From Reclinomonas americana ATCC 50394 (taxonomy: Eukaryota), in NCBI GenBank assembly GCA_048213135.1, contig PS015097.1, positions 278,070 through 313,863 on the forward strand: a stretch of 35,794 nucleotides of DNA. The letters are read 5' to 3'. Under the pieces are notes generated by a model. It was not told the origin of the DNA and made no database searches. It worked only from the letters and a program-made list of their open reading frames with translations. The translations under genes and the position numbers were made by a program. Shown piece after piece: positions 109 through 34,766 of this stretch. Position 1 is the first letter of the stretch; each line of letters begins with the position of its first letter.

Positions 109-113
<5 letters not shown>

Positions 114-148
<35 letters not shown>
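114..148. repeat. (GA)n microsatellite
   Basis: Direct read of the sequence. Confidence 0.95.
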
Positions 149-151
<3 letters not shown>

Positions 152-195
152 TGTTTGTTTGTGTGTGTGTCTGACTCTCTCTTGTGTGTTTGCAG

Positions 196-2908
196 TTTGG
201 CGCAGAGTGTCGCTGGTGTGTCTGCCTTTGACGACACGTTTTTGTTGGGAGTCACTGCGGTGAGTGCGTCTGTCTTTCTCTGTGCACAGTGCGTGCATGA
301 GAGAGAGAGAGAGAGAGTGGTACATTGTGATTGCGTGTGAGTGAGATGGTCATGACGAGGCGAGGGCGAGAGATAGACATGAAGAGGGGTGAGAGATAGA
401 CAGATAGACAGACACACAGAGAGTGGAAGAGTGAGAGTTTATGCAGGCGGTGAAGATCAGCAGGAAACAAGTGAGGAGCAGAAGGAGTGGTGAAAGGACT
501 GTGTCGTCATTCGCTCTCTCTTCCTTCAGCTTGTTTTCCTGTTCTGCCCATGTGTTACTCTTTCCTCCTCTTCTTCTTGTCCCTTCCCTCTTCACCTTCG
601 CTCTCCTCCCGCTCATCGTTTTCCTCGTCCTTCTTCCCCGTTCCTGCTTCAGCTGTATTCTGCTCATGTTCTCATTCTTATCTTCTTCTTGTCCGTTCCG
701 TCTCCTCCTTCGCTCTCCTCCCGTTCATCGGTTGCCTTGTCCCCTGCCTTCTTCTCCTCGCCTCCCTCCCTTCCTTTCCCTCTCCCTCTTCCTCCTTCTC
801 CATTTCCTCTCCACTCCTCCTCTCCCCTGTCTTCCTTCACCTGCTCTCATCCTGTACCATCCTCCTCCTCCCTTTTTCTCTGCTCGATTTCCTCCTCCCC
901 GTTCTCTCTTCCTTCTTCTGTCCCCCCTTCCCTCTCACCCCCTTCTCCCATCACTTTCACAGCCTGCTGGGCAACTGTGCAAAATTGCCCGCGACGGTAT
1001 GCATGATTTGCGCGTCCCAACACATGCACCGTGCTCACACTTCTCCTTCCCCTCCCCTCCCACCAGGCTCCTCGGTGCAAGTTATCGCATCGGCGGTGAG
1101 CGATCTTCTTTTCCTTTCTTATTCATCGCGCCCTCACCCTCTCCCGTGCAGGGCTGGACGTTGGCACGACGCGCTGTTCTCCGCAACGTTGGCGGCAACA
1201 AGACCGTGGTAGTGGTAGAAACCGCCTGCCTGTGGTTGTACGACACTGTAACGAGTTTCGTGTGCAACTCTAATCGCGTCGCTTCCCCCCGGTTGACTGA
1301 CTTGCCTGTCTCGGCACGCAGACACGGCCACGGTAATCGCCGGCACGTGCTCGGCGCCTTCGTGAGTCCTTGCAGTCTTGTCTCTCCTTCGCGCTTCGTT
1401 CTCATTGTGCGGCGTGGGCTTGGCAGGTGCACCGTACCACCGGCGGATGGACTCGGCGCCGCGGCGTGTCTCTCGGTCGTGCGAGACGTAGCCGTCGACT
1501 CTGCGGGTGTAATTTACTTTGCAGATGCTGTTGCGTTTCTCTTCCCTCTCTGTCCCGCTCTCTCCTTCGCCCACATCCCATTTCTTGAATTTTTTCTTTT
1601 GCTCATCGTTTTCTGCCCCCTCCTTCTCTCCGTTTCTCTCCCTCCCTCCTCTGTCTCTCCTCTCTCTCTCTCTCCGCTCTATCGCGCTTTGTTTCTGTCC
1701 TCCCCCTTGTCTCGTCCTCCCCTCCCCCTTTATCTCTCATCTTCTGTCCCCTTTATCTCCTCCTTTTCTCTATTTGTCGCCGATTTTCCCTCCTTATTTC
1801 TTGTCTTCTCTCCCTTACTTTCTCCCCATTCCCTCTCCCCCTCACTTCCTCCCCATTCCTCCTCCTTCCTCCCCTCCTCCTCCTCCCTCCCCCCCCCCCC
1901 CCCCCTCCCTCCTCACTGCTTGCGCGCCTGCAGCAAGCGCACTCGATTCGCCAATGCGTGCTGCAAAACACGTCGCCGCCCGTTTGCTTGGTCTCGACAA
2001 TCGCTGGCGGCTCCGCCCCTGGCTTCCTCGACGGGGCAAGCAGCAATGCACGCTTTGCCCATCCGACCTCCATTGCGGTCAACGCGGCTGGCGACACCAT
2101 TTTTGTGGGCGATCTTGTTGCGTGCTGTATCGCGCACGACTGTGCTTTCACAAATGCTTACAAGTCGCTGCATTTCCTCGCTTGCGTGCACAGAATAATG
2201 CGGCGATCCGCAAGCTCACTCTATCCGGTGGTACGTGCCCGCTCCTGCTTTTCAATTGCGCTCGTCGCTCATTTTCCCCTGGTTGCAGGCAACTGGACTG
2301 TCAGCACGGTGGCTGGCAAGACTGGTGTTTCCGGTGTCGACGACGGAATTATGGGCGGTGGCCTGCTCGCATCTCCGCTGGCTCTGGCCATCGACCCTGC
2401 CACTAACGACTTGTATGTGGTCGACCAGGTGCGCCTTTTTTTGCAACAACTGCCATCTCTCGCTCCTTCCGTCTGATCGCCCTCTGGCCAGACAAACGGG
2501 TGCATTCGAGTGCTCACCGACGATGTGTTGTGGACACTGGCGGGCACATGCGGCGACACCGGAGCCACGGCCGATGGTTTCGGAAGCGCTGCGCTGTTCA
2601 ACATGCCCTACTTCAACTTGCTGCCTGGTCTGTACATCGATACGGCGGCCTCGCAGTTGCTCGTGTCGCAAGCGGTGAGTGTATGCGTGTCATGCGATGG
2701 GTGTGTGCCTGTGCAACTGAGTCTGTGCATGTGGCTTCTCTCCATTCCTCTCACTCTTCCTCTGCCCCCTCTCCTCCCCTCTCCTCCTATCCCTCGCCCT
2801 CTTCCTTCCCCCCTCCCCCCTCCCTCCCTCCTATCCCTCTTCCCCCTCCACTAACCCATCTCTCGCAACAGACCGTCGCCACGGCACCGATGCGCATTAT
2901 CAGCTTGA
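196..2908 (+). CDS. NHL-repeat beta-propeller region (N-terminal exons of the giant gene)
   Basis: Spliced translation gives typical NHL blades: [88 protein letters not shown]...[52 protein letters not shown]. Confidence 0.9.
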
Positions 2909-4193
2909 GTTGCGCGCACACCTCCACATCCTCACGTCATGCACTCACCTCTCACACGCCCCCTTTCTCCCTTCCCCTATCCCCCTTCCCCCTTATCCCC
3001 AGCCACCTTGTCGCCGTTGTCGGTGGACCGCACCCAGACATCCACAGTGACGGTGTCCTATGTCGACTGTCCCTCCGCTATGACAGCGTGGGCGCTGGCC
3101 ACCTCCAATTGTCAGGCCGACGTTTTTGTGCACGTACCGGCTGTTTTCGTGTCGGCTGGCGTGTTCACGGTCACCATCCCAGTCAACGCACTTGCGCAGG
3201 CCAGCGCGTACCGCATCTGTCATCCGGTCACCGCACCCACTGGTCCGGTGACCTCGGTACCCGGTCCCATTGTGCGCGCCATGTACCTGCGCCCGCTGGC
3301 GACACCGCAGACAGTGTTCACTGTGGCCGGCCAAATAATCTCCGTAGCCGGCAGCAACCTGGTGGATCTGGCGTCGACCGACAATGTGCCCTTGGTGGTG
3401 ATTCCAGACTGCAACACCGTGCCGGTCGCTCTGCCGCCAACATCGACCACTTGGGTGTCGTCCACCTCCTTGCGAGTGACGCTCGATGCGTCTTCGATGG
3501 CGGTCGGGTCGTACATGCTGTGTGCGCGCATGACATTGACTGCCGCGTACGTTCCTCTCGGAGTTATTAATGTTGGTGAGTCTCATACGTGGTACTCTTC
3601 TTGCGTGTTACCACCGTGTGCGTTGCATTTTCTCACTTTCTATTTTTGTGCGTCACAGCCGCACCGTACGTGAGCCCGGCTGCTGTCGCTGCGACTACGG
3701 CGCACATTACAGTGACCGTGGTCGGACCGAACTTGGATTCGATTCAGCAAGTGGTGCGATTGCGTCTCTTCCGTCGTCCTGTCCCTCCGCGCGTCTCATT
3801 CTTTTCCTTCTCCTTCTTTCTTGTTGCAGGGCCTTTCCACTGGGCGTTGCAATCTGCTGGACCCAGTCATATTCAACAGCCAGCTCGGCGACTGGGACTC
3901 GGTGCTGTTGCAGCGCGTGGTCACCTTTGATGGCGTGCTCTCGGCTGGCCTCTGGTACGTGTGTGGTCAGGACTCATCCACCGCTGTATGGAGTCCGCTC
4001 TTCACCGGTGGCCTTGGTCTTACCATCGATCCACCCGCCACTATTTCTGTCGGTACGTTGTCACTCACTCACTTGCACACACGCACATGCACGCACACAT
4101 GCACACACATACACACACACACACAAGAAAGAGAGACACTCACAGAGTCAGCCCGCACTCACTGTATCTGAGATCTCCATCTCTCTCTCTGCC

Positions 4194-4241
<48 letters not shown>

Positions 4242-5019
4242 NNNNNNNNNNNNNNNNNNNNNNNNNNNNNNNNNNNNNNNNNNNNNNNNNNNNNNNNNNN
4301 NNNNNNNNNNNNNNNNNNNNNNNNNNNNNNNNNNNNNNNNNNNNNNNNNNNNNNNNNNNNNNNNNNNNNNNNNNNNNNNNNNNNNNNNNNNNNNNNNNNN
4401 NNNNNNNNNNNNNNNNNNNNNNNNNNNNNNNNNNNNNNNNNNNNNNNNNNNNNNNNNNNNNNNNNNNNNNNNNNNNNNNNNNNNNNNNNNNNNNNNNNNN
4501 NNNNNNNNNNNNNNNNNNNNNNNNNNNNNNNNNNNNNNNNNNNNNNNNNNNNNNNNNNNNNNNNNNNNNNNNNNNNNNNNNNNNNNNNNNNNNNNNNNNN
4601 NNNNNNNNNNNNNNNNNNNNNNNNNNNNNNNNNNNNNNNNNNNNNNNNNNNNNNNNNNNNNNNNNNNNNNNNNNNNNNNNNNNNNNNNNNNNNNNNNNNN
4701 NNNNNNNNNNNNNNNNNNNNNNNNNNNNNNNNNNNNNNNNNNNNNNNNNNNNNNNNNNNNNNNNNNNNNNNNNNNNNNNNNNNNNNNNNNNNNNNNNNNN
4801 NNNNNNNNNNNNNNNNNNNNNNNNNNNNNNNNNNNNNNNNNNNNNNNNNNNNNNNNNNNNNNNNNNNNNNNNNNNNNNNNNNNNNNNNNNNNNNNNNNNN
4901 NNNNNNNNNNNNNNNNNNNNNNNNNNNNNNNNNNNNNNNNNNCGAACGACGACTACACGTACGACGTACGTACGTACCGTACCCGTACCTACCGTACCGT
5001 ACGTTACGTACGTACGTAC

Positions 5020-5105
<86 letters not shown>

Positions 5106-8100
5106 CCGTTGCCTTGACTTGGTGTCAAGTGAACTGATATCTCCTCTTCGTTCCGTCAGGGGGCCTATCGAGCTTCTGGCCCGTTACCGCCACCGCGGGC
5201 ACATCAACCACGGTGGTAATCACTGGCGTCGGATTTACGAGCGCCACAGTCACGGCGGTTGCTCTCGACGTGAGCGGCACGTGCACAGCGGCGGCCATCC
5301 CTGCCACATTCACGGTCACGACGGACACATCGCTGTTCTTCACCGTACCGGATGCCGTCCAGTCACCCTGTGCCGTGTGTGTCACACTCAGTCCGTCGAC
5401 CACGGCCAGTGCAGTGCCTGGTGGCCTGCTGATGATTGGTGTGTGTCGGCGTTATTGTGTGGTCGACTTTGTGAGTTGCACTCACCTCTTGCGTGCAGCA
5501 TCGGCGGCGGCCACGGCCACCTCATTTACGCCGCTTGCGTTGAGGCCAGCGGTGGCTGGCACACTGACAGTCCTGGGAACCAACTTGATTCCGTCCGCCA
5601 GTGTATCGGCTATTCGCCTGGAGTGGATGGGCGCAAGTGGGGCGCTGACGTGCACCGCCGACCCTGCCACCAGTCCACCAAAGTCGGTTGCCGTACTCGC
5701 CACCTCCATGGTGGCGTCAGCAAACAAGCTGAGCGTGCGCGTGAACATTGCTGCCGGGACGCTGCTCACGCCGGGCGCCTATTCTGTGTGCAGTTGAGTA
5801 TGGGTGCATGCGTCTTCCCCCTTCTTTACGCGTTAAAATTGACCTTCCTGCCATGCACACAGTTCTCTTTGCGTCGAGTTCGACGTACACGGTCGTATCG
5901 AACACCGTGCCACTGCTCGTTGGTGCGTCTCCGAGTTGCACGTGATTGTGCACGCCACGCCCCTCGTGTACTCACACACTGATCGACAGCTGGCTTTACG
6001 GACGCTCCGCTGCCATCGATCTTTGGTACTACTACACCGCCGACTCTCTCTCTCGGTGGTGTCGGCCTGGGTCTGGCGAGTGTCGCCTCGGTCACCTTCA
6101 CAACGTCGACCGACTGGTGCGTGCACCCGAATAATGCATGGTTTCACTGCAATATTGTCTGACGATGATATGGCTACAGTGTGGGCACACTACAAGCGGC
6201 GGCAGCTGCAATGTGTGTACGATGGCGTGCTTTATACGTGGCCTTCTTCACAGCGAGCTCACTTTGTGTTTCCCTCGTGCGTAGTATTCCTGTGCCAATC
6301 ATGAGCATGTTGCCGATTCTGCCGCTGGGCAGGTGCGTCCCACTCGTTTTCTTTCCCTGCCTTTGGTGCTGTTCTTATTGATGTCACCTGCTGCAGCCTG
6401 TCAACTAGGTGCGCCAGTGTTATCGCTGTTGCTCTCCACTCACTCGTTTTCCATTCATGTTTTCAATCTCCACAGCTTCGCTATTACATCGGCGACCGTG
6501 ACGACCACGCTGGCGACTGGGCTCACCGAAAGCGCACCTCAATACGCCTCCCTGTCGTTCCCCACCCCCGCACTCGCAGGTGGTGTCTACACTGTGTGTG
6601 CTTCAGTGTACGATGGTACGACTTCAGGCAACACGGTGGCCGTGCCTGTCACCATGGCCACCATCAACGTTGGTACGCACCTGCGCATCCTTGCTTCCTC
6701 CGCTTGTGTATGTGCGTGTGTGTGTCTCATGAGAAGTTCCAGGCACGGGCACGGGCGTGTCACCGACAAGCGTGCTTCTCGGATCATCAACCACCATCAC
6801 CGTACAAGGTAGCGGTCTGTCACCCGGTGTGGACATTTCGAGCCTGCGGCTGGTGCCGGGAACCACTTGCCCAGCTTCGACAACGGCGAGCATGCCGGCT
6901 GGCACATTTTCCGTCCCCGCCGCCAATCTCAGCTACAGTGCACTCGGCGGTCTCACGGTGACATTGCCGCCAGCCACAACATTTTCTGTGGCAGGTGCGC
7001 CAGTCAATCAATTGTGACGTGTATGTCATGTGATCGCTGCTCATGTATCTTTCTTTCTATTTCACTTCCCCACACAGGCGCGTACTCGGTGTGCGTCGAA
7101 TATGTCGCCTCACCTGGATTGCTCGTGCAAGCGTCACCCACTCCACTTCTCGTTGGTGAGTGCGCGATTGATTTGTGTCTCACTGAGCAGTGAGCTCACC
7201 ATCGAGTTACCACCATGACAGCATCCGTGACGTCGGTGACGGCGAATACCCTCTCGTCCACCTCTGGCGGCGTCCTCACGCTCACTGGTGCGGGCTTGTC
7301 GCCGTCGAGTGTGCGTTCCGTGTTGCTTCAATCGGGCTCCTCGTGCACCGGAGTCGCCATGTCGCCATCGGTCACCGTCGCCAGCGCACAATTGATTCCT
7401 CTGGCGCCAACGTCGTACACCACCGTTGGTGTGCCGCTCACTACGCTGCCCACAGCACCGTACACCGTGTGCGTCGATTACACGGCCAATACTGTGATCG
7501 GCACATTCCAGTCAGTTGGCACCGCAAGCGCTTGTGCGTTGTTGACATCCTTCTTTTGCTCTTTCGTCTCTCCCCTCTCACGAACTCCCACTGCAGCCTC
7601 GGCCATTTCTTTCTCGCCCTCGGTAATGACCGTCGGCACTCAGACGGATTTGACAATCACTGGGACGTCGCTGGCGCCCACCACCAATGTGGTGGCTGTC
7701 CGTCTTGAACGCGGCACCACGTGCACTGCCGACCCCACGGCTTCTCCTGCTTCCGGTTCCGTTTCCACCACCAATCTGGTGGGCAACGGAACCGGCCAGC
7801 TGCTCACCGTCACCATGTCGTCGCGCGTGAGTGCGGCTGGCCCGTACGCCGTGTGCGTGGAGTTTGTCCTCAGCGGAGGCGGCCTCTCCAACACGTATCT
7901 CGCAACGCAACAGGCACCGCTTCTCGTTGGTGGGGAGTTTTTGTTGTTGCACCTACTCTTGTTTTCCCCGCCTCCTCCTGCTGACACGCATTATTCTCCC
8001 ACTGTCGTGGGTGCAGGTGCCTCCATCACTTCCATTACACCGTTGGCGCTGATTCCGGACAGCGCGCAGCAATTGACTCTTGTGGGCTCTGCACTCGGCA

Positions 8101-11100
8101 TCAACTCGCTGTTTTCACTGCGCCTGCAGTCCGGCACCAGCTGCAGCTCCTCTTGTGCGCCGTTTGTGGACGTACCTGCCGCACAGTGGGCCGCCGTCGG
8201 CTCCAATTATACCAAGCTTGCGGCAACGCTCGACACGCGCAACATGGTCGGTGGCGCGTGGTCGGTGTGCGTTCGCTACCAGCCGCAGACGGCAGCCAAT
8301 CCGCTCACCAAAGTCGGTGAAATTGTCCTCGGTTGGTGCCACTCTTTCTCCCTCCTCCGACTGTGTGCGAGCTGCTAACATGGCGTCTTCCTCCCACTGG
8401 CACAGCTAAAATAACGGACTTGTCGTCGGTGGCACTGATGAGTGGATCGGCTGGGTCGGTGACGATGAGTGCCGCATCGCTGAAACCAGCACAGAACATT
8501 ACGTCTGTCACCATTCGACCTGGCGCCACGTGCAGCGGGCCTGTTGCTGCCACGCTCTCCCTGGCGGCCTCGCCACCGTCCACCTGTGTGTCGACCATCT
8601 CTGGCTCTTTGTCGAGCGCTCTGTCCCCCGGCGTGTACACGGTGTGCGTCGCATATACGGGTGGCACCGCTGGCGCGCTCCAACCGCTGCCGTCTCCCCT
8701 CTACATTGGTACGTGTTGTCTCTCCACTCTCTGCGAGTCTGGACAAACCAAACTGAACACTCTGCGCAGTCAACGTGGACTCGGTGTCGCCGTCACCCGT
8801 CGGTGTGCTCTCGACAACAACACCCACTTCCATTCGCCTCAGCGGACAAGGCTTGAATGTGGCCTCGATCCGTGCGGTGCGTATCGCCACCGATGACAAT
8901 TGCGGTGACGGTACCGACATCACGAGCGGCTTCTCCTTTTCTGCGGACAACACACTTCTCGTGGTGCCGCTGACTCCCGGCGATGTGCCGAGCGGTGGCC
9001 TCCTCGCAGTGTGCCTGGATGTCAGTAGCTCTGATCCGGCAGGCACGTGGAGCAAGGCCGGCACAGCTGTTCTCCGTTGCGTCCTTGCTGCTGTTCGCGT
9101 TTCTTGTGATTGCCGCTAACAAGCCCACTGCCCTTTGTCGTCAATCAGTCACCAGCAATCGCCGATATCAGTCCTTCAACCCGGTGACTGCCGACTCCAC
9201 CGGTGCGCTGACTCTGACTTTGTCGGGTGGCGAAGCGTATTCTGCCGCCGCCGTGCGCCTGGCCTTGGTCGGCACGAATTGTTCGCAGACACTGTCAACG
9301 ACTGTCAGTGCCGGATCGTTGCAGCCGACCGTGGTTATTGCGTCGGATTCTGTTGTCGACGGTGGCGCTGCGAACCACAAGTTTGCCGTTCTCGGTCTGC
9401 TCACATCGACGACAACGCTGGTGGTGGCTACCACGGCCACCACTCCAGTCCTGATCACGTCAGACATGGAGGTCTCCATGTTTGGTTCCACCATCTTGCC
9501 GGGCTACTATCAGGTGTGCGTCACGGACGCTGCCACGGGAGACACATACATCGCGTCCCCCGAGCTGCTGGCCTACGGTGAGTGTGTGATTATTTATCAA
9601 AGGCCTTCTTTGGGGCAAACCCCTCACCCACCACTTGCAGATGTTGTGGCGCCTGCTGATCTTGCCTATGGACCAAACACGTACACCTATCCGGCGCCGT
9701 CTAGTGGTGTCGTGGCCGTGGGTGCAGTGGGCACGACGAACACGGCAACAATCACCGTGGTCAACTCCTCCATGTTCTCCGTGTCCGGTGGTCAGCTGTT
9801 TCTGCAGGCCTCGGAACAATCAGATCCGACTCTGTCGGTGACTCTGCAAGTCGCCGACTTGTACGGCAACTCGGTTCAGCGCACCGTTTCACTCCAACGC
9901 GGTTTGTGCAATACGTGGCGGGGTGGTGCCTTTTTGTCGTTTGTATCTATGTTCTCATCGTGATGTTGGGCTTGCAGTGTGCGACGCCGCTGTTACATGG
10001 TTTGTCTGTGTGTCGTCGCTGCCTGCTGTGGCCATCCGCGAATCTCATCCTTGTCTCACTGCAGCAACGGCAACGGCACGTGTGACGCGAGTGAATCGTG
10101 TACGTGCATCCATAATTTCCGACCACCGTACTGTCGCACACAGTTGCGTACGCGTGTGTATTTGTGTGCAACATGCCAATATTATTTTATTCCCTCATCC
10201 GTGTGTGTTGTTGTACCTGTAGGTGTGTCGCTTCCAGCGACTGCAACGACAATGGCACCTGCAACGCCTCGGGAGTGTGCGTGTGCAACGCCAATTTCGG
10301 CGGTCCTTTCTGCTCGTACTCGTTGCGTGGCAACTTTTGGTGTCACATCTACAGCACAGCGCACACAAACCACTCACCCTTTTATCTCCGCTGCAGCTGT
10401 GGATCTGGCTCGGCGCCGACTACCGCGTCGTTTGCACCACCGACTGTGTCACCAACACGAACGTTGCCGTTCAATCTGAGGATCTACGGTGCAAACCTCG
10501 ATCCGGAAAACGTCGTCCGTGCCGTTCGCCTACAACGCGGACAGGTGTGCACTGATGTTGCGGCGACGGCGGACCTGCTGCCAGCGGCCTTTGACGCCTT
10601 CTCGAACGATGGCGAAACTTCGTCGTGGGTAGAAGTCCGTTTCGACAAATTGCCGACTCCAGACGTGTACTCTATGTGCGCGCAGCTGGCGTGCGCCGAC
10701 ACACACTTTGTGGCGGTTGGCGGCACGCAGTTGCTCTTTGTCCGTGAGTCACTATCTCCCTGTTGCCGCACACTGTTTTTTGTGTGCGTATGCTGCTTGG
10801 ACTCACTCCGCTGAGCAGCATCGGTGGCAACCTTCACGCCAACGACCGTGGTGGCTGGCACACCGGTCAGGCTCACTGTGCAGGGTGTTGGGCTGTCGGC
10901 CAGCAGTGTGCGCACAGTGCGCTTTGAGCTGTCACCTGTGTGCACCTCCGGGTCGCTGCCGCGGCAACCGTTTGTCGAGTTCTCGGTGGCCACTGGCGCC
11001 GTCGCATTTGCGGGTGGCACATTCACGGAGCTCAGCGTTCAACTCGGAGCAGCAACCTTGTCCGTCGGACTGTGGAGCGTGTGTGTGGAGTACGAAGGCG

Positions 11101-12849: not shown

Positions 12850-12948
<99 letters not shown>

Positions 12949-13905: not shown

Positions 13906-13942
<37 letters not shown>

Positions 13943-22543: not shown

Positions 22544-22583
<40 letters not shown>

Positions 22584-22737
22584 CTCTCTCTCTCTCTCNN
22601 NNNNNNNNNNNNNNNNNNCGTACGTACGTACGTCGTACACGGTTACCGTACGTACGGTTCGGTTCGGTTTCGGTTTGGTTCGTACCAACGTAACGTTAAT
22701 TTTAGTTTGTTTGGTTTGGTTGTAGTACGTACTACTA

Positions 22738-22788
<51 letters not shown>

Positions 22789-24673
22789 TTATCCAGCCAC
22801 TGCTTCATTGTTTTCGCCAGTGACAATTGTGGCATCATCGGCAGCCGCCAAGGTTACAGTAACCGGCACGCACCTGGCTACCTCCGACGATTTGGCGTTG
22901 GAGCCTGGCGACTCCTGCACATCAGCCGGCGGCGCTTCCGGCACCGTCACCATCTCCACAACCCCAGTCCTTGGCGGCGGCGCTACATTGCTTACCTACA
23001 CCATGGGTGGCAGCGGGGTGCCTGGTGGTGTGTACTCTGTTTGCCTGCGCTTCTCGACCACGGGCGGCTACTTCAAAGTTGGCATCACCGAGCTTATCAT
23101 CCGTTGCGGCATGACGTGTGTGTTTTTTGAATATTGATTCATGGGAGTGTCGCCTCACCTACCGTGATGCATGTTCTCTCCCGTAGCCGCATTCACGGCA
23201 GTGACCCCGCTGTCGGCCACTGCCGAGGTGCCGAACACTGCCTTCACCCTCACTGGCGTCGGGATGCGGCCTGGCGCCTCCATTGGCACGGTGTTGTTGC
23301 AGCCGGGCAGTAGCTGCACCGGCACCAACGCCACGGTCGTGGGCACCATTGCCCCCGATGCGACCCTCACCACGCTGTCGATGCTCGTAGACGGAGCCGG
23401 CATTATCATGCCACCGCTGCCTCCCGACACATTCATCGTGTGTGTGGAGTTGCTGTCGGCGCCGTCAACATATGTGCAGGCCACACCCGATGTCATTGCT
23501 GTTGGTGCGTGGAGGATGCATGCGCTGTAGTCAACAAAGAGACTCACTGTTGTGTTTGTCATGTGCACCAGCGGCCGTCGCCAGTAGCTTCTCGCCCGCG
23601 CAAATCAACGCAGAGATGCAAGGCGAGATCGTTGTGTTGTCGGGCCTCGGTCTCCGTGCGTCGGATGTGGTGCGACTGCAGGCTGTTCCTGGCTCGTGTG
23701 CCACTGTGGGAGCGCCCACTCAGTTTACGTCGTCTTCGCTCATCGGCCTGCCGGGAGCGCGACAGTTGACCGCCTCTGCCACGAGTGATGCCACTGTTCC
23801 GCTCGGCTCCTACACTGTGTGGTTGCGTTTGTGTGCAGCGCAACGCGTCCACTGTTGTTCCTCCTTGTGGTTTTGTGTCGTGACTTTTTGGTTGTGTCAT
23901 CACAGCATTCAGTATGGTGGTGCCGGCGTATTCAGCGCCCTACCTTCCACTCTCACCGCTGGTTCGTATGCACTGCGCTCGGTTTCTGGTCTTTCTGTGC
24001 ACTCGCAGTGCAACTGACTCCTGTGCGCAGTGGCCACGGTGTCGGGGTTCACGCCATCTACCATCAATGCCGAGGATGTGACAGCCACGCTGACTGTCCT
24101 CGGACGAGCCCTCGACGTCTCCTTTCCCGTGATTCTCGAACCGTCTGGCTCGTGCTCGATGCTGCCGTCGGCTTCGGCCGTCCTTCTCACTTCCACTTCT
24201 GTCGTGGGTGTCGCCGGTGCGCGCAAGCTCATCAGCGCCGTTTCCGTGTCGAGTCCTCTTGGTCTTGGCACCTACGCCGTGTGCATTCGGTTGGCCGTCG
24301 GCGCTCCGTATCAACAAGTCGGCAGCTCGCTCCTTGTTGCTGGTGAGCGACAGTGTGGAGTCATTCATTGCACAGAACGAGAAAGGTGGACTCACTCACT
24401 TCTCCAACCCTGCGCAGTCGGCTCGGGTATCGACTTTTCCCCGAGTACCATTCTTGCGGAACTCGGTGGTTCCACACTCACTGTCACTGGTCGCGCACTC
24501 ACCGTGGACGACACGTTCACATTGGCCTCTGGGGCTGTGTGCCCTATCACTGGTGGCTCCATTCCACTCACTGTGGCGGGTAGTCCGGGTGGATCATTTG
24601 GCGCGCGGACCCTCTCTGTTACCGTGCCAGCGGTGCGTTTGTATGTGAGAAAAGGGAGAGAGATATAGAGAGG

Positions 24674-24745
<72 letters not shown>

Positions 24746-27700
24746 TGACCTCACCACTCGTGTGTCATCGGTTGTAGATTCCACAAGACACATACACGCT
24801 CTGTGCCCGTTTCTCTGGCCGCCAGGCGAACGAGTTCAGCAGTGTCGGCAACACGTTGCAAGCTGGTCTGGCACTCGTCCACCATCGATCCCGTGTGTCA
24901 GCACCACAGATTCTCATCCGTGTGGCTCCTCGTGTCGCAGATCCGTCTGTCACTGGATTCTCGCCGCTGGTCATTGCCAACGACGGCCGTGGATCGGAGA
25001 TGGTCGTTTCGGGTCGCGCGCTGAGCACCAGCGATGTGCTCGGTTTGGCACCGGCAGCAAGTGGGTGTCCGGCGTCATCGTTGTCGGCCGGCAACAGTGT
25101 TCTATTGCACACTGGCGCTCTGTCTGGCGCCTTTGGCGCACGGCTCCTTGCTGTCACCGGACAGAGTATGGGTGTGCATGGAGGCCAGTTCGCGTTGTGC
25201 ATCATGTTTGCTGGAGCCACCACTGTGACTCAAGTGGGCGCTTCGCTGGTCACTGTCGGTGCGTTAGCGGTACTCGTGATGTCACCAGTGACTGCACCAC
25301 GACACTCATTCATAGGGGCGATTTGATTTGCAGCGGAATTGACGGCTTTGGATCCGCCCACGGTTACGCGGGCAACAGGTCGCACGGTGGCCGGCACTGG
25401 TGTCTCGATGGTGGCCGTCGCACCGACCGACACTGCCGCATTTGTGCTCGTCAGTGGGTGTACAAGTGCTGACACGGTGACCCCGCCCGCACCGGCCGCC
25501 GTGGCGGTCACCATGAGTGGCACAGTGTCGGGTGGAACGACTGTAGCGTTTACTCTCGATGCGAGTGGTCTCCTCGCTGGCTGCTACAGAGTTACGCCCG
25601 TGTGAATGAGAGGGGGATGTGGAGAAAGGGAGGAGCTCGAGGCGTGCGTGCGCATCTCACTATTTTTGCTTGTAACAGGTGTGGGTGCGCTGGCTTGCCA
25701 CGAATCTCTACTCGTTCAGCGGGCAGACGCTCTCCGTCGGTACGTGCCGCGTGCACCATTTGTCAGCTGGGGATTCTTGGCGTGCTCACACTTGCTCGCG
25801 TCTTGTAGCTGCGTACACATCGATCTCACCGGCTGCCGTGCTCTCTGCTGTGGCACACACGGTCACTCTGAGTGGCAATGGGTTTGTCTCGTTGCCGGCG
25901 AACCCTCCGGAAGCCATGCTGACGCAGTTGTGCGCTGGAACACTCCCTGTCGCGTGGCCGTCGTCCACCGTGACTGTGAATCCGTTGATGTCGTCGACGT
26001 CCATGTCGCTCGTGGTGGACGGGAGCAGTGGGGGTGTGTGATTGGGAGAGAGGGAGGAAGGGAGGGAGGGAGGGAAGAAAGAAGGGTGGGAGGAGGGCAG
26101 GAGGAGGAGCACACAAAAGAGCGGAGAGTACTGTTGACAGAAGGTGATGGGAATTCATGTATTTACTGTGTGATGTTGTGTTGCAGCTAATGGCAGTGCC
26201 CTGGCTCTTTGTGTCCGCTGGAGTGGGTCGGCCAGTGCGCAGTGGACTTTGGCGGGTGCCATCAACTTAGGTGCGCTTGTATCATAATTTCATTACTCAC
26301 TTTGGTCTTTGTTGTTGTATTGACGATTGTGAACGCCGTGTACCTTGCGTCTTCAGTCCGCATTGACGTACCACTGGCAGCTCCGGCAATCCATGCCACC
26401 AGCGCGCAGGTTTCGTGTTGATGCTGTCTTACTCATGCATTTCGTCGTGTGCTAATGGAATAGCTCCACTTGTATCGCAGTCGATGGTGTTGACAGGCGG
26501 AGGATTTGTCGACATGTCACAGACTGCCCTCGGCGGCGCCTTTGACAACCAGGCCTGGGTGCTGGCGGCAAGCTGTGCCGGTGTTTCAGTCCCTGTGGCC
26601 AACACACTGGTCACTCCGCAGTCATTGACTGCGATGGTCACTCAGCCGCCACTGGTCAGCGCACTTGTTTCTCCGCTGGCAGTGGCTGCCATGCCCACGA
26701 GCATGACTCTGCAATTCGATGCCCTTGGCGCCGTCACCGGATCGTACTCCCTGTGTGTACGTTTCGCTGCCAGCGCCACATACGATGCTGTGGCCACGTT
26801 GAACATTGGTAAGTGCTCGGCATTGTTGCTGTTCATTCACTCCCACGTACTCACATTGTGCCCCCCTCCGCTCACAGCCACCATTCTATCGTCCAATCCA
26901 CCGGCGGTGGTCGCCGGAGCCGTATCGACGGTGACGCTCAGTGGTGGCGGTCTTGTCGTCCCCTACGTCACCAACACGCAGGCGCTCGTGGTCGCCACGT
27001 CGTGCACTGGGATGGGCATGCTGCCGCCACCGGCACCAGTTGTCGTTCTGACCAACGCCATGCTGGCGGCCTCCAAGCTGGTGCTTTCCATGGACACTCG
27101 GATGGTCGCTGGCGGCGCTTATCGCGTGTGTGTGAAGTGGAATGAGGCTGCAACTACCTACGTGGATGCGGTTGGCATCAGCATTGGTTTGTCATTGCTC
27201 TTGCCACTTTTTTGCTCATGCGCAACTAATGGTTTCCCGTGCAGTGGCTGCAACTTCCATTCTGCCGCCTGTGATTCCGCCAACGACGAGCGCGCCTGTC
27301 GTGCTTCGCGTCCTCGGCTCTGGTCTTATCAATATTGGCCTCAACAGCGATCCGCAGCCGGCGTTCCTCGCTGACGACAGTACGTGCGCCGGCGCCAATG
27401 GTGGCTCGGGTCTCACGGTGTCGTGGAATTCGTTTGTGAGCAGTGGTGAAGTGCGCTTCACCGTGTCGGCTGCGATTGCTCCGGCGGCCTCTTATACCCT
27501 TTGTGTGCGGTGGTCATCGACGACTCCGTACACATCTGTCGGTCTCACGTTAGATGTTGGTGAGTACGCATTCCACACACAACCCACACGCACGTCCATG
27601 TGTCCTCTTTCGTTGACACACATCGTTCCCCCTACCAGTGAGCATCACATCGTTCTCGCCGCCGACAATCAATCGTCAACTCGACCAGAGACTGACGCTG

Positions 27701-30700
27701 CAAGGCAGTAATTTGGTGGCGCCATCGACCGTGCAGTTCTTTGCCTCGCCGAGCTGCGGCGCTAGCTCGCCAGTCACAGTCGCCGGAGTCTTGTTGGCAT
27801 CGGAGTCGGCCAGTGTGGTTGTCGCCAACATAGCTGACTCGGCACCTGTCGGTTTCTGTCGCCTGTGTGTGCGGTGGAGTCCCAGCACTCCGGTGTATGA
27901 TCTTGGCCTGCTCGGTGTTGGTGAGTGCCGACTGTGTGTTCTCTTCGCACTCGTGGTGGTATGCTGAGCCTTTTGACTTGCGCACGACAGCTTACATGAC
28001 GCCGGAGCCGACGTTTATGTTTGCGGCCAACAACACGGACGTGACGGCGAGTGGCGACGGATTCGTGTCGTTCGGATCGGACACGGCACCGATGCTAATC
28101 TCCCGCGACTGCAAGCGTTCACCGACACCTGCACCAAACATGCGGGTCCGCGCTGCACGCACCCTCTCCACCACACTTGTGGCATTCACACTGGACGCCG
28201 ACGGTGCCACTGCTGGTACCTATCAGGTCAGCTTTTCTTCTGCCTCCTATTCTTGTTGCTTCTTCTCTTGCCAAGTATACTCACACACACACCGTTGCAC
28301 ACAATGGTAGATGTGCACGCGTTGGGCATCGACTGCGCCGTATAGCACAGCCGGCATCTTGTACATTGGTTTGTGTCTTTTCTTGTTGTTGCTGGCTCCC
28401 GTGCAATGCGCGCACACTCATGTGTGATTTAGTGGGCGTGTTTGAGGTGCAACCGAACTCCATCAGTGATCAGCGCGGTCAGCTCGTATCAGTCATTGGT
28501 GACGGCCTCCCGAACCTCTCGGGCGACTCGCGTTCTGTCGTCTTCTCGCCCAACTGCACCCGTCCATCGATTGTGGCGCCGTCGTCAGTCACCAACTCGA
28601 CGCTCACTGTCGGTACTGGCGATCTCCAGCACGCGACGTTCACGATCAATGCGAAGCACGTGGCCGGTGGCGCATACTCGCTGTGCATGCGGTTGCCGGG
28701 CGGCAGCTCCTACCAGTTTGTCGGCTCGCTCAGTGTCGGTACGTCGTGTGTCGTTGGCTACAACTTTTTGCCTGTCGACTCACGACGATCCTGTCAACAG
28801 CGCCCCTTCCGCTGTTGCAAATCACGCAGGTGTCCAGCGAGGCACCCGTCAACGCGCAGCCGGGTACCACCTCCGCAGCCACCGTGTACGGACACAAGGG
28901 CTTGGCAGTGGAGTGGGAGGCCACCGAAGACGTCTCGGTCGTCAATGTGGAAGTGTGGGCTCTCGAAGGAGGTTCGTACGTGTACGTGTGTACTCGTTGC
29001 TGATGTCACGCGATATTCACATGGGCGCGCGCACTCGTGTGCGTGTATGTAGGCATGTGGCGCCAGCTGTTGGTGGCAGTGACGGATGTGGCGGCCACCG
29101 ACTCGTCGGCCACGCTAACTCGCACACTGCAGGCCCTGAAGGGCACCATTGGCACCGATGTTGCGTTGCGCATCCAGTTGTCCAGTGCGACCACCAATGG
29201 GACCACCAGCAGTGGAGCCGTGGCGCAGAGCTCGCCGTTCTTCCTGCGTTGTTGCGTCTTGCACATCAGGATGGAGTGTCTCTCTGTCTCGCTGATCGTC
29301 CCTTCACTGATGTTGACTTGGTGCTTTGTGTGCGAACAGTCCCGGCGGTGGCCAGCAACGTCACGGTCTCGCAAGTTGTCCTCGGGCAACCGCTGACAGT
29401 GCAATGGATGTGTGACGGCCCGGCCTCCACCAACAGCACGTTTTTGATTGAGGTGTGTTGGGCACCAATCATGCACTCTGATGACTCTCGCACACACACA
29501 CACACACAAAAATCGGTGTTTTTTTTTTTGCAGGTTTTGGACTCCTCCAACGCCTTGGTGGACACGCTGTCACGCGCCGCTCGCGGTGCCTGTGCACCGC
29601 AGAGCACGAGCAGCAGTGTTGCCGGCGGAACTCGTTCTCTTCCCGATTCGACCAGCAGCTCGACGACAGCGATCAACACGTTTGTCTATCAACCACCGGC
29701 TGGCACGGCCGTCAAGTTTACGACGGGTAACAACTACCGTGCCCGTGTGACACCCGTCGGCGAGGACACCACGTCGTGGGACATTACACCGACCAACTCA
29801 TTCCGTTTCATTGGTGAGTTAACTCGACAGGAGGAGGTGCGGGGAGGATCCATGCTCAATGCGTTATTTTTCCCCCTCTGCAGCACCCACGTCGGGCTTC
29901 TCGTCGTGCCCGAATAGTATTACGTGCTGGTACTGGTTGCTGCTCATTGGTGCCACCGGCACACTACTGTTGCTGCTCGGCACTTGTGGTGCTCTGTATG
30001 CGTGCGCTCGCCGTCGTCGCCGTCGCGACACGCAACGCCTGTTGCGCAGCCAAACAAATGTCCTGCTGATCGAGGCCGCGCTCAAGGCGCAGCCAGAGCT
30101 CTCGTTCTGGTACTTTGTGATGCATCCGTCGTGGTGGTTCGGCAGCGGCGGCACTCTGGCTGCCGCCGGCAAGAATCTGTCAGTGCGCGAGCTTGGACCT
30201 GTGCCAACTGGTGGCGACAAGGCCGCAGCACTGACCACAATCGACTTTAGTGACGTGTTCCGTTGCGTTTTTTCCCCCTCCGACGTACCACATTGTTTAC
30301 CTCGCAGTCATTCATCTCACCCGCGCGGTAGGTTCTCCACTGTACGGCAACGTCGCATCCCCTTCAATTCCGCGTTTGCCGTCGCTTCACTCGTCGCCAA
30401 TCGCCTCAGCAAGCAACACGCCGCGTCCGCCAGTGGGGCCCACCACTCCTCGTGGCGTCGTGCCAAGCCCCGCAGCATCGCCAGGTGAGTCACAGCTATC
30501 TTTTTACGATCACTCGAGTCTCGTCTCTGACAATCTCCGAGCAGCCGGTGCACCACGTCAAACGCGCGGTATGCTCGAGTCGCCGAGAGATCACGACCGA
30601 GCTGGGTGGAATGGCAGACACACGTCGTCTGCCACACCGAGTCTGCAGAGTGACAATGATCACGCGCGGGCCGTCGAGTTTGTACCGGATGCAGGAGCGC

Positions 30701-31728
30701 AGCGTGTTCCTGTGCGCGGCTTAGCGCTCACCGGCTTTGCGGCCCCGACATTTGCGCCGCCGGTTCTGCCGCCGTTGCGATCACCGCCCCCTGCACCGTC
30801 GTCGCCGTCATCACCGTCGTCGCCATCACCGCGGTCGGCGGGTCCAGGCACCCCAAGACCTCCACCTGCGCTCGCACCGACCGGTCCACCGTCGTTTGCA
30901 GTGCCGCGTTTGAATCTGCAGATGCTGTCACTACCACTGCCGCCTCCGCCACTGACTGCGTCACCGCGCTCTCCGCCCTCGCTGCCGTCTGCGGCGGCGC
31001 CGCCGAGTACACGATCACCGCCCATTCGACCTCTGCCTGCGCCAGTGCCACCACTTCCGACTTTGGCCGGATCGCCGCGCCCCGCTAGTTCATCGCACCC
31101 GCTTCAGCTGCGAATGCCAATGTTTTCCGCCAGCTTTTCGCCACCCATGGCCGCACATGCCGCACCAACGGCGTCACCATTCCGCTTGGACGCCCTCGTG
31201 ACGGCACGTGGTGCACCGCCGGCTCGCCCGTGGCCACCCATGCACCTGCCTGTGTCACCACGCGGTCCTGCCACCGCTGTGTCGGCGCGATCAGCACCGA
31301 GCTCGCCGCGCCCTGCACCCCCGGCACCGCTCGTCCCGCTGCCCATGCCACCCGCATCTGCAACGCCGTCGCTTCGGTTGGTCAACGCCGCGCCCCACGC
31401 TACGTCGTTGTCCGTCGGTACCGCTGCCGCCGGTCACTCATACAACTTGCTGCGACTGCCGTCGGCGGCCGGTTTGCCCCCGCAGCCTGCCGCACCCCCA
31501 GCGCGTCCTCCTGTGATGATTCCGCGACTGGCTCTTCCCGCCGCTGCACCTGTGCGACCGCCACCGCTGCCTCTCTCACCGTCACCTGCACAACCTCCTG
31601 TAGTATCTGCTGCGGCCCGGCCCGCGCTCAGCGATGACAACTCGTGGCGGTTGGCCTCGACCGAGTCTGACAGCGACGACGACAATGCCGACGACGGCGA
31701 CGACGTGGACGTGTTGAATGCTCGTTGA
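196..31728 (+). CDS. Giant multi-exon type-I transmembrane cell-surface protein (NHL propeller + ~52 IPT/TIG-like repeats + cadherin-like + 2 EGF-like + TM + Pro-rich tail); 5' end not resolved
   Basis: Manual GT-AG splicing keeps one frame across ~89 introns, from exon 196-259 ([21 protein letters not shown]) and exon 963-996 ([11 protein letters not shown]) to TGA at 31726-31728. The exons share a recurring repeat motif. Gaps at 4242-4942, 12956-13904 and 15377-15732 may hide exons, and structure at 6180-6410 is ambiguous. Confidence 0.85.
3003..9577 (+). CDS. First block of ~13 IPT/TIG-like beta-sandwich repeats
   Basis: Repeats of ~100-130 aa with consensus 'SF(S/T)P...LT(V/I)TG..L...VR(S/T)VRLE.G..C...G.Y(S/T)VCV.Y...L.VG', seen in ORF fragments 2939, 5213, 7215, 8333, 8775 and 8983. 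IPT/TIG assignment is by motif resemblance only. Confidence 0.75.
4180..5102. repeat. (CT)n microsatellites flanking assembly gap 4242-4942, within an intron
   Basis: CT runs on both sides of the N-run. Confidence 0.9.
9641..9901 (+). CDS. Single cadherin-like/Ig-like module encoded by one exon
   Basis: [20 protein letters not shown]...VGAVGT...[12 protein letters not shown]...[23 protein letters not shown] resembles the cadherin-like pattern F.I..G.L...L.V.A.D..G. Canonical Ca-binding DYE/DxNDN motifs are not evident. Confidence 0.45.
9978..10321 (+). CDS. Two tandem EGF-like domains (exons 9978-9999, 10065-10142, 10223-10321)
   Basis: Spliced peptide [65 protein letters not shown] shows two 6-Cys EGF patterns (C..NG.C....C.C...F.G..C). 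Confidence 0.9.
10397..28738 (+). CDS. Second block of ~39 IPT/TIG-like repeats
   Basis: Same repeat consensus. Nearly every repeat starts after a phase-1 acceptor and ends at a phase-1 donor (for example LLVG|gt). Later repeats end in the LCVRW variant. Confidence 0.8.
12851..13939. repeat. (GT)n microsatellite beginning at a splice donor and flanking gap 12956-13904
   Basis: The GT run begins exactly at the donor after ...CTCATCGTCG and resumes after the N-run. Confidence 0.9.
22490..22783. repeat. Intronic (CT)n tracts around a short gap
   Basis: Direct read of the sequence. Confidence 0.9.
24676..24742. repeat. Intronic (GT)n microsatellite
   Basis: Direct read; lies inside intron 24633-24777. 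Confidence 0.95.
29928..30008 (+). other. Transmembrane helix of the giant protein, followed by a poly-Arg stop-transfer segment
   Basis: [27 protein letters not shown] is followed immediately by RRRRRR (positive-inside rule), indicating N-out/C-in topology. Confidence 0.9.
30332..31728 (+). CDS. Pro/Ser/Ala-rich disordered cytoplasmic tail with acidic C-terminus (probable in-frame 60-nt intron at 30485-30544)
   Basis: ORF 30250..31728 has many SP/SPR and PxxP motifs and ends in [31 protein letters not shown]. Confidence 0.8.
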
Positions 31729-31772
31729 TTATTGGTAAACACAATTGGAGCGGCATCATTGTTTATACAAGA

Positions 31773-33629
31773 TTATGAATTGAGCTCCACCAACAGACCC
31801 ACCAGGAAGATGACGACAGAAAAGTATAAACCGGCAAAGTTCATCGCACGGCCGCTGTCGACTTCGGCGTGCAGAATACGCACACCGTCGTGCATTTCAA
31901 TGGACTTGCTGATGAGTTGCAGGAGCTGCGGGCAGCGTGCGTCCAGGTGACGCGAGTCGGCGTAGTAGTAAAAGTCGATCTGCGGCCGGGGTGTGTGTGT
32001 CTGTGTGTCAGCTTTGTTGTGCTAGCAAACAAGCGCACAAGTACTCACCGAGGCCGCAATGAAGAACTTGCGGTGTGCCTTGTCGCGAGCATTGGAACTG
32101 GCGGCCGCCACCAACACAAATGTGTTTGCCGTCGTCAGTGCCACCAGGTCGGCAAGTGCCAGGAATGCCGGAAACAGATTTGCCGTCGGCGACGACTTGA
32201 CCAGTAGCACGGCTATGAGGAGGAGGACGAGGAAGACCACTGTCTCGAACACAGTGACACCAATCACGATCTCGGCCTCGGCCTGTCGCTGCCGATTGAC
32301 GTGTTCGCGATTCTGCGTGCAAATAAGGCATCAGCCGAAAGGGGGGGGGGGGGGGGGGGAGGTAGTACGACGTACGTACGACGACGAACGAAGAAAGAAG
32401 ACGCACACGTACGAAGTAGTCGCGGACGACACACAGAGACGNNNNNNNNNNNNNNNNNNNNCGACGACGACGTACGACGAGAGTGAGGAGGGGGGGGGAG
32501 GGTGAGACTCTACGTGACAGCAAAAGAAAAGCGCAACTGCCAAGTATTGCCGGGCAGACCACCAAGAGCGTACGTCGGGGACGTTGAATGGACTGAGTTC
32601 GAGGCCCAGCGAGCCACCCGTCCATGCTTCGGAGAAGAGAACATTGCGCTTTGCGCGGAACGTGAACTTGTTGTAACTCGTCATTTGGAGCAGCAGAATC
32701 TGTGTGTGTGTGTGCACGGTGGTGATGAGTGTACTGCCTTCATCTCGCTGTCTTTCCCCTTCCGACATACCAGCAAGTACACCAACGGCGTCACGAGCTC
32801 CGGATAAATGACGGCCAGGTAATCGACGAATCGCTCAGTATCGCCCCACAACAGTGGCTCGCCTGCACCACCACCACCACCACAGTCAGCCACCGTACCA
32901 CGCAATCGCAGTATTGGCACACACGCACCGGCAAACCCGTGAACAAAGAACGGGAGAATGGCTCGCACGATACACCATGTGACACATGCCACCACCTGTT
33001 TGTTGGTCACCTCAATGTACTCGGTCCACACCTGTGATGATGTGGGGGAGAAAGGGGAGAGGGGGAGAGGGGAGAGGGGTGGGGAAAGGGGTGAGGGGTG
33101 AGGGGAGAGGGGAGAGGGGAGAGGGGTGGGGAAAGGGTGAGGGGAGAGGGGAGAGGGGTGAGGGGTGAGGGGTGAGAAGAGAGGAGAGAGGAGAGAGGAG
33201 AGGAGAGAGGGGAGAGGGGAGAGGAGAGAGGAGAGAGAGAGAGAGGATGAGACAGAGAGAGAGAGAGACAGAGAGAGAGAGAAGGTCGGGACAGACGACG
33301 TCGTCGACTAGTGACGAAGGAACGGTCGCACTACAACACGACACAACACACCACACAGAAGAAATGATAGCGATACGTAAGTAAAGTTCGCCGAGAANNN
33401 NNNNNNNNNNNNNNNNNNNNNNNNNNNNNNNNNNNNNNNNNNNNNNNNNNNNNNNNNNNNNCGAGAGACGGACCGACACACAGAGAGAGGGGGAGGACGT
33501 TGTCGAGAGACAGTCATACACACCAACCACCAACAACCAACACAACAAACAACAACAACACACACAACAACACACAACAAAGACAACAACAACAACAACA
33601 ACAACAACAGCAACAGCATCGACAACAAC

Positions 33630-33683
<54 letters not shown>

Positions 33684-34726: not shown

Positions 34727-34766
<40 letters not shown>

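Follow-up and report, generated by a model that had tools for sequence, protein, structure and literature searches.

The stretch of DNA analysed here, 35,794 nucleotides of Reclinomonas americana ATCC 50394 (contig PS015097.1 of the assembly GCA_048213135.1, positions 278,070 to 313,863 of the forward strand), is referred to below as the window, and all coordinates are counted from its first letter. It holds a giant multi-exon gene on the + strand, whose introns are short (median about 70 nt), and a convergent gene on the - strand. In almost all eukaryotes, no intron position beyond the GU of the 5' splice site (the donor) is better conserved than the G at +5. Donors that hold G at +5 are called ordinary in this text, and those with T at +3 and G at +6 are called displaced. 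The evidence presented below suggests that the displaced donors constitute a real second class of 5' splice sites that is read by displaced pairing, whichever the partner RNA may be, and a probability of roughly 0.6 is assigned to this reading.

The giant gene and its models

The window has a G+C content of about 58% and contains six gaps filled with N. The features of the giant gene are as follows.

1..31728, + strand: giant multi-exon gene, with its 5' end open at the window start (gene models)
about 1152-2908, + strand: NHL-type blades (gene models, translations)
3003-28747, + strand: about 70 TIG-like repeats of about 105 amino acids, mostly one per phase-1 exon, ending '..LLV g/GT' (the slash marks the exon-intron junction here and below)
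9978-10321, + strand: two EGF-like modules (translation reading)
29884-29995, + strand: predicted membrane span (translation reading)
31726-31728, + strand: stop codon at the end of a Pro-rich tail (translation reading)

In Pfam, a TIG match was obtained at window:5138-5794 (E 2.2e-6), and an NHL match, with an E value of 0.0021 that is below the cut-off, lies within window:1589-2473.

The gene models were produced with a dynamic-programming gene finder based on codon log-odds, GT..AG boundaries, and an intron penalty, which was used without a donor model, with one donor matrix, and with a two-class matrix. In the curated model, four sites were patched by hand according to paralogue motifs, and the over-extended exons at 12058 and 28739 became ordinary donors. 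This model has 90 scorable donors in the + gene, of which 64 hold G at +5, 21 are displaced, and five are of other types, most of the latter looking like errors of the model. Over its 89 introns free of N there is neither a frame break nor a stop codon at a junction. The 20 displaced introns free of N all end in an AG acceptor, and by our own tally retention breaks the frame in 15 of them. The sample comprises about 100 introns of two neighbouring genes, in models made in silico.

Letters and counts of the displaced donors

The original prediction was that 21 of about 89 donors of the + gene, and one more of the - gene (32537), carry an extra T that moves the G from +5 to +6. The letters read as claimed, GT included, at all 22 sites (21 on the + strand and one on the - strand), and the curated model gives the same 21 sites among its 90 donors (about 23%). 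They are listed below, where cost means the log-odds lost when a finder is barred from the site, and HMM refers to a hidden Markov model of the repeat that is presented in the next section.

1255..1261, + strand: GTTTCGT; phase 1; all three finders; cost 14.4; no nearby in-phase GT with G at +5
1530..1536, + strand: GTTGCGT; phase 0, ADA/QAHSIR; one-matrix and two-class finders; cost 7.7
2117..2123, + strand: GTTGCGT; phase 0, NHL-blade junction GDL/NNAAIR; two-class finder
2909..2915, + strand: GTTGCGC; phase 1; all three finders; cost 8.6; no in-phase alternative with G at +5
5793..5799, + strand: GTTGAGT; phase 1, YSVC a/tt LF; HMM +16 bits over the next in-phase GT or GC
9076..9082, + strand: GTTGCGT; repeat end, phase 1; one-matrix and two-class finders; cost 8.4
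10143..10149, + strand: GTTGCGT; end of the first EGF-like module, phase 2; not picked by the one-matrix or two-class finder
10322..10328, + strand: GTTGCGT; end of the second EGF-like module, phase 2; two-class finder; cost 1.9
11641..11647, + strand: GTTTCGT, candidate, ambiguous; fits a '..PLYS a/' repeat end; picked by no finder
14815..14821, + strand: GTTGCGT; repeat end PLLV g/; all finders; cost 16.2; no other in-phase GT
16166..16172, + strand: GTTGCGT; repeat end; all three finders; cost 11.1
16639..16645, + strand: GTTGCGT; repeat end PLLV c/; all three finders; cost 7.0
16776..16782, + strand: GTTTCGT; within a repeat, phase 0; two-class finder; HMM +5.3 bits
20521..20527, + strand: GTTGCGT; repeat end; all three finders; cost 10.7
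22439..22445, + strand: GTTGCGT, ambiguous; repeat end TVTI g/; one-matrix and two-class finders
23103..23109, + strand: GTTGCGG, candidate, ambiguous; fits a '..ELII c/' repeat end; HMM scores tie
23822..23828, + strand: GTTGCGT; within a repeat, phase 2; all three finders; HMM +10.8 bits
25591..25597, + strand: GTTACGC; within a repeat, phase 0; HMM +7.2 bits over GTGTGAA at 25600; picked by no finder
26410..26416, + strand: GTTTCGT; phase 0; one-matrix and two-class finders; HMM +2.6 bits; cost 8.8
29251..29257, + strand: GTTGCGT; stalk after the repeats; one-matrix and two-class finders; cost 6.6
30262..30268, + strand: GTTGCGT; after the membrane span; all three finders; cost 5.4

The heptamer GTTGCGT accounts for 13 of the + strand sites and GTTTCGT for four, and GTTGCGC, GTTGAGT, GTTGCGG, and GTTACGC occur once each. 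GTTGCGT is found 15 times on the + strand of the window and four times on the - strand, whereas dinucleotide shuffles give 8.93 +/- 3.04, and of the 100 made, not one reaches this total of 19. Moreover, 17 of the 19 copies of GTT[G/T]CGT on the sense strand of the + gene stand at an exon end in a compatible frame. Even the finder that has no donor model places six of its 76 donors on GTTGCGT, a heptamer carried by only 15 of the 2547 sense GTs (binomial p 6e-6), and the same finder on the antisense strand places none of 58 there.

The composition of the donors that lack G at +5 indicates that the displaced donors are probably a discrete class and not the tail of a loose consensus, because T at +3 and G at +6 are shared by 21 of these 26 donors, against 56 of the 1646 decoy GTs without G at +5. 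For GTT[GT]CGT the proportions are 17/26 and 2/1646.

Two further observations concern other positions of the + gene. One of the two GTTGCGT that the model scores as exonic opens a possible extra in-frame intron of 81 nt at 19489-19569 (GTTGCGT...TTATGCAG). It sits in an unusually long repeat exon (447 nt), whose repeat-HMM score rises by 2.7 bits when the candidate is removed, and, if real, 19489 would be a 22nd displaced donor of the gene. At the model donors 14471 and 18143 (GT-GTACGT and GT-GTTTGT), the ordinary hexamer starts 2 nt inside the GT required by the frame; these could be model errors (14458-14470 is an exon of only 13 nt) or cases of a two-base displacement.

Predicted position of the cleavage site

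The place of the cut can be compared among paralogous positions of the protein. Four introns of the NHL blades fall at the same spot (ADA/QAHSIR, GDL/NNAAIR, VDQ/TNGCIR, and SQA/TVAT...), with the donors GTTGCGT, GTTGCGT, GTGCGC, and GTGAGT, respectively. The first two junctions had been proposed as pins for the donors 1530 and 2117, and they indeed share the blade position of the ordinary donor 2429 (VDQ/TNGCIR). The Pfam NHL match in window:1589-2473 extends as far as residue 176, whose codon is the last one ahead of 2117, and the use of an alternative donor at 2105 would delete VGDL. In the same way, every intron at a repeat end comes after '[LIV]x[LIV] + 1 base', with ordinary and displaced donors alike. 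The displaced GT occupies the same place as the GT of ordinary paralogous introns.

The EGF-like modules provide a second type of pin, since the cysteine spacing invoked in the original prediction requires both 10143 and 10322. The former is needed, on the translation reading, for the spacing C-x5-C-x5-C-x5-C-x-C-x8-C, and the in-phase ordinary GTGCGTG at 10277, the alternative to the latter, would cut the module.

Sites within repeats were evaluated with a repeat HMM that is blind to splice signals. It was built from 16 repeats with ordinary donors only, and the candidates scored were all GT and GC dinucleotides in phase within 60 nt. It favours the five within-repeat sites 5793, 23822, 25591, 16776, and 26410 by 16, 10.8, 7.2, 5.3, and 2.6 bits, respectively, and the first of these sites is the one at the junction YSVC/ILF, which had also been proposed as a pin. 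Before the stop at +2, no other in-phase GT is available at 5793. At 23822, the junction codon TG/C restores the conserved Cys of the repeat motif 'GxYxVC'. A one-base slide of both intron ends was rejected at 23822 and 5793 on our reading of the conserved Cys. The model has no power at repeat ends, where the differences are below 0.5 bit; overall, it ranks first 34 of 48 ordinary donors and seven of 14 displaced ones.

One explanation for these sites would be an artefact of the gene models, in which the introns are cut at another GT, at a GC 3 nt downstream, or are retained in frame, or else the class could be a peculiarity of this one repeated gene. Several data are consistent with this possibility: five displaced introns can be retained in frame (10322, 11641, 16639, 20521, and 23822), alternatives in phase score equally at 11641 and 23103, two introns cross N gaps, and the gene is made of paralogous repeats. 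However, in-phase GTs other than the predicted one are absent at 5793 and 14815, and no in-phase GT with G at +5 lies near 10 of the 21 sites. A barred site gives way in nearly every case to a GT outside the consensus (e.g., GTAATTT, GTCATGC, GTGATTG, or GTGTCAA), and 1.8 to 16.2 log-odds are lost. A GC-AG donor 3 nt downstream (GTT/GCGT) was rejected, as GC scores 14.4 bits lower at 23822 and the nearest GC 16 bits lower at 5793, the would-be +5 and +6 positions are not conserved, and GTTTCGT cannot be read in this way. A local peculiarity is opposed by the occurrence of the sites in at least six unrelated protein contexts plus the neighbouring gene, and by unrelated intron bodies between exons that are old paralogues. 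Taking both sides together, an artefact or a local peculiarity is considered quite improbable. About 18 of the 21 + strand sites appear well supported, and 11641, 22439, and 23103 are ambiguous; that the displaced introns are actually spliced is what we infer from the sequence.

Features of the displaced introns

Displaced and ordinary donors differ in more than the position of the G. C is present at +5 in 20 of the 21 displaced donors, compared with C at +4 in 24 of the 64 ordinary ones (p 2e-6). Among ordinary donors, the type seen most often is GTGAGN (19/64), and its displaced form, GTTGAGT, occurs only once. At +4, displaced donors have G in 16 cases, T in four, and A in one; at +7, T is found in 18/21, and G at +6 is universal by definition. 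The ordinary donors hold at +3 and +4 GA (19), GC (15), TT (7), AC (6), GT (6), and other pairs. The class can thus be described as 'GT + T + NCGT', which looks like the C-type ordinary core moved by one base.

The second difference lies in the exon. G at -1 is present in 4/21 displaced and 51/64 ordinary donors (p 1e-6), a contrast that is perhaps slightly inflated because the ordinary matrix rewards G at -1 when choosing among alternatives; among phase-1 introns alone the figures are 2/13 and 37/44, and of the ordinary donors with C at +4, 21/24 keep this G. Positions -2 and -3 of the exon follow codon third-base usage and do not inform on shift versus bulge.

In contrast, the rest of the intron is similar in both classes. 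The acceptor has C at -3 in 19/20 displaced and 52/62 ordinary introns, the pyrimidine fractions are 0.66 and 0.65 (p 0.84), and the branch-like motifs CTCAC, CTGAC, and CTAAC were the same on reading the printed introns. Displaced introns are slightly longer (median 77 vs 69 nt, p 0.003). By every feature tested, they appear to be U2-type GT-AG introns.

The copying of one intron many times, as an introner or through recent duplication, is ruled out because the intron bodies are unrelated: among 89 introns, only eight pairs reach E<=0.01, none of them joins two displaced introns, and all look low-complexity. The nearest paralogous exon is flanked by an ordinary donor in nine of 10 cases, and the repeats are at most 42% identical. 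Displaced sites are distributed over NHL blades, repeat ends, three within-repeat positions, EGF modules, the stalk, the tail, and the neighbouring gene. A hairpin GTTGC...GCAAC near the donor was also considered and rejected, since it is not specific to the class (2/20 displaced introns vs 0.96 expected; 13/64 ordinary introns vs 6.2 expected).

These features bear on the simplest alternative, namely, that there is only one degenerate donor class and that a U bulged out at +3 is no obstacle to the standard machinery. Ordinary donors are already variable at +3 and +4, and proof that human cells use bulged and shifted registers is given in passages of the work on human U1 registers (Tan et al. 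2016, PMC4856993). Tolerance of this kind is nevertheless opposed by the heptamer shared among donors without G at +5, by the restriction of the +5 letter to C, and by the loss of G at -1, as a bulge keeps the pair between G-1 and C9 of U1. This alternative is consequently regarded as highly improbable.

Pairing with U1 and the proposed reading

Duplexes were predicted with RNAduplex, in any register, for the standard 11-mer of the U1 5' end, AUACUUACCUG (as printed in Tan et al. 2016, PMC4856993), from which the U1 of this organism may differ. The median energy is -5.95 kcal/mol in the ordinary donors and -1.30 in the displaced ones, compared with -2.10 in 2371 decoy GTs, and ordinary donors are clearly separated from decoys (p 2e-27). 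Among ordinary donors, those with C at +4 pair weakly (median -5.2, vs -9.2 with A at +4).

According to these data, the idea of a shifted or bulged second donor class, put forward in the original prediction, holds in part. There does seem to be a discrete class in which G and T stand one base further in, but these are not ordinary donors plus a bulged T, because only the NCGT core is found, G at -1 is lost, and the U1 duplexes are no better than those of decoys.

The reading proposed here is that these are real U2-type GT-AG introns with a second 5' splice-site consensus, N/GTT[G/T]CGT, which would be cleaved before its first G. The C-G-T of ordinary NCGT donors (GT-NCGT) would lie one base further in, behind an obligatory T at +3. 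Pairing would be displaced by one base, with G-T-TGCGT in the frame of a small nuclear RNA (snRNA) that reads G/GTGCGT, and U at +2 would be the sole mismatch. The G at +1 of the intron would take the slot of the exonic G at -1, which would explain the loss of the latter, something that a simple bulge at +2/+3 does not do. The GU would then be set as the cleavage site at a later step involving U6 and U5, as in the rare human shifted-register sites.

A number of points weigh against displaced pairing as just described. The displaced duplexes differ from decoys in the wrong direction (p 0.06; area under the curve, AUC, 0.38), and neither the C at +5 nor the near-absence of GTTGAGT is predicted by displaced pairing with standard U1, to which A would pair better. 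Pairing with U6 would also need a bulge. Regarding the sites themselves, an in-phase GT with G at +5 is present near 11 of the 21. The site 11641 ranks seventh of eight in-phase alternatives by the repeat HMM; an ordinary GTGTGT lies in phase at 23118, 15 nt downstream of 23103; and the intron of 22439 enters the N gap 22599-22618, as the intron at 32537 (-) holds the N gap 32442-32461, so that both acceptors are inferred across a gap. (An ordinary GTTTGT 5 nt downstream of 22439 is out of phase.) The recovery of the predicted sites, which was 8/21 without a donor model and 13/21 with one donor matrix, rose to 17/21 with the two-class matrix, a figure that is partly circular because this matrix was trained on displaced sites. 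Finally, the class is seen in two genes only.

The C at +5 has no partner in the ACAGAGA box of U6 either. The lack of a partner for this C, together with duplexes no better than those of decoys, argues that standard U1 is not the whole story. A dedicated reader could be imagined, namely, a second U1-type snRNA or a guide RNA, with a 5' end adapted to the NCGT core or to GUUGCGU. It would take over from standard U1 in defining the displaced donors, and perhaps the full set of 45 donors with an NCGT core (24 + 21). Such a reader would be consistent with the tight seven-letter motif, in which C at +5 has no partner in standard U1, with the dispensability of G at -1, and with the weak pairing of ordinary C+4 donors. 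When each of the 33 possible single-base changes was made in the 11-mer, an exercise that only generates hypotheses and is not evidence, the AUC of the displaced class rose from 0.38 to 0.85 with a change at position 8 and to 0.68 with one at position 5. On the other hand, a search of the window for RNA families gave no Rfam match and no snRNA, and the likeness of branch-like motifs and acceptors in both classes gives no sign of a separate spliceosome. No eukaryote is known to have a functional U1 with a changed 5' end that acts on a sizeable fraction of its introns, which sets a low prior for this idea. In its favour, the same idea has been raised for the GTGCGTG donors of Ostreococcus, in passages of Irimia and Roy 2008 (PMC2483917). 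On balance, a dedicated reader seems unlikely.

A wider version would be that the major spliceosome of this organism has two 5' splice-site specificities, the half of the donors with an NCGT core (24 ordinary + 21 displaced of 90) being defined by an adapted second U1-type snRNA, the sole particle that would tolerate or prefer the displacement. This is rather unlikely and should be taken as speculation. As for displaced pairing itself, the identity of the RNA that would read these sites, and how common the class may be beyond the two genes, are matters that we infer from the sequence.

Relation to known systems

The closest known system in terms of geometry is the shifted register of human 5' splice sites, which was reportedly described in human genes by Roca and Krainer in 2009. 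As in the displaced donors, an extra base follows the GU, G and U stand at +6 and +7, G at +1 occupies the slot of -1, and cleavage takes place at the GU. The human share is small compared with 21/90 in one gene, and the human core, AAGU, pairs well with U1, whereas the core found here is GCGU or UCGU. The good U1 pairing that characterizes shifted-register sites was not found with the standard 11-mer. In Tan et al. 2016 (PMC4856993), a model oligonucleotide has the shifted-register geometry, and all validated human non-canonical registers together amount to 3119 of 201,541 sites (1.5%).

Bulge registers are said to have been described by Roca et al. in 2012. On paper, a single U bulged at +2 or +3 turns GTGCGT into GT-T-GCGT. 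Such a bulge leaves C9 of U1 free for G at -1, while here this G is lost (4/21) and no energy is gained with standard U1. The remainder of a bulge +2/+3 site is ordinary, G at -1 included; in the displaced donors the core is instead restricted to NCGT in 20/21, vs 24/64. Human sites with a bulge at +2/+3 number 68 predicted and 54 curated of 201,541, as given in Table 3 of Tan et al. 2016 (PMC4856993).

A second and tighter donor consensus, without preference for an exonic G at -1 and with its own snRNA, is a property of U12-type introns. Their donor, /RTATCCTT, is unlike the one described here, and their share in nearly all known genomes is far below that observed here. A U12-type identity was rejected because the donor letters differ and, on reading by eye, no TCCTTAAC-type branch appears near the 3' end in the 19 printed displaced introns.

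In Ostreococcus and Micromonas, according to passages of the two studies, GTGCGT(G) is the main donor, two sets of introns exist per genome, and the question of adapted snRNAs or two spliceosomes for different intron sets has been raised (PMC2483917; Verhelst et al. 2013, PMC3879977). C at +4 as a mainstream donor core is a point in common, and these main-text passages do not mention a displaced G, the logos being in the supplements. Those genomes, as portrayed in the same passages, are intron-poor or have introner elements, unlike the unrelated intron bodies seen here.

The literature found on U1 registers is human work only, and a review (PMC9311317) adds nothing on registers in other species. 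In searches for GTTGCGT or GUUGCG with splicing, the matches listed were primers or unrelated items, with no record of a donor class of this kind, most subscription journals and all supplements lying outside the search. Taken together, the displaced class appears to have the geometry of the shifted register, yet fails in pairing with standard U1, and it looks neither U12-type, nor GC-AG, nor introner-like.

The neighbouring gene and other observations

The features of the gene that converges with the giant gene are the following.

31774..35507, - strand: gene for a multi-pass membrane protein of no recognised family (translations, gene finder)
32531..32537, - strand: displaced donor GTTGCGC, phase 0, after ..RQYLA (picked by the gene finder on the - strand)

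This gene has about 10 introns, with its start codon near 35507 and its stop near 31774, and no relatives of its product were found in a word-index protein search or in the protein atlas. The stops of the converging genes (31726-31728 on the + strand and near 31774-31776 on the - strand) are about 46 nt apart, so either the 3' untranslated regions overlap or they are very short. One intron of the - gene (33500-33700) carries (GTT)n microsatellite text after a long (GT)n tract, beside an N gap.

At the 3' end of the giant gene, an open frame runs from 30235 to the stop at 31728; the model introns 30485, 30678, and 31088 in this region are not required by the frame and may be unreal, and one of them has one of the five 'other' donors. 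Three long introns of the + strand (264-1066, 1530-1933, and 2675-2871) consist of degenerate CT-rich repeats, and the bodies of 1530-1933 and 2675-2871 have in common a 35-nt stretch with 89% identity, similar text also opening the window. Several N gaps are bordered by short ACGT-rich repeats (such as GTACGTACGT and CGTCGTACG; 4943-5030, 22619-22660, and 32360-32500), and long introns contain homopolymer C runs (1880-1900 and 32340-32360) and low-complexity CT-rich blocks. These three kinds of sequence are probably the cause of the assembly gaps.

Word-index protein searches and metagenome scans found no relatives, and all scores in the protein atlas search were below 0.9. A phmmer search with the repeat exon 16254-16637 against 1.84 billion representatives gave six matches at E<=0.001, none of which crosses a displaced junction. 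Three of them (P0003, P0005, and P0008) are short proteins that share the repeat, with 26-41% identity to the repeats of the window (tblastn), and the other three, which are long, look like unrelated bacterial repeat proteins. The ends of the short proteins read '..LYIGE..', '..LYVGEC..', '..LLVGEC..', and '..LVGK', with no displaced donor visible among these four. Judged by amino-acid letters only, they look like unspliced read-through of G/GTGAG or G/GTAA donors at the same repeat boundary.

Significance

In practical terms, single-matrix gene finders misplace junctions of this kind, and our own single-matrix finder missed 8/21. If the displaced class is real and equally common in the rest of the genome, R. 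americana would be an organism in which a fifth of the introns depend on a fixed heptamer with G at +6, without an exonic G and with a poor match to standard U1, and hence a natural experiment. It would bear on the division of work among U1, U6, and U5 in finding the splice site and setting the cut, and it would open the long-standing question of adapted or duplicated snRNAs to direct tests. Should two specificities indeed coexist in the major spliceosome, GUUGCGU introns would represent a third spliceosomal intron signal, distinct from those of standard U2-type and U12-type introns.

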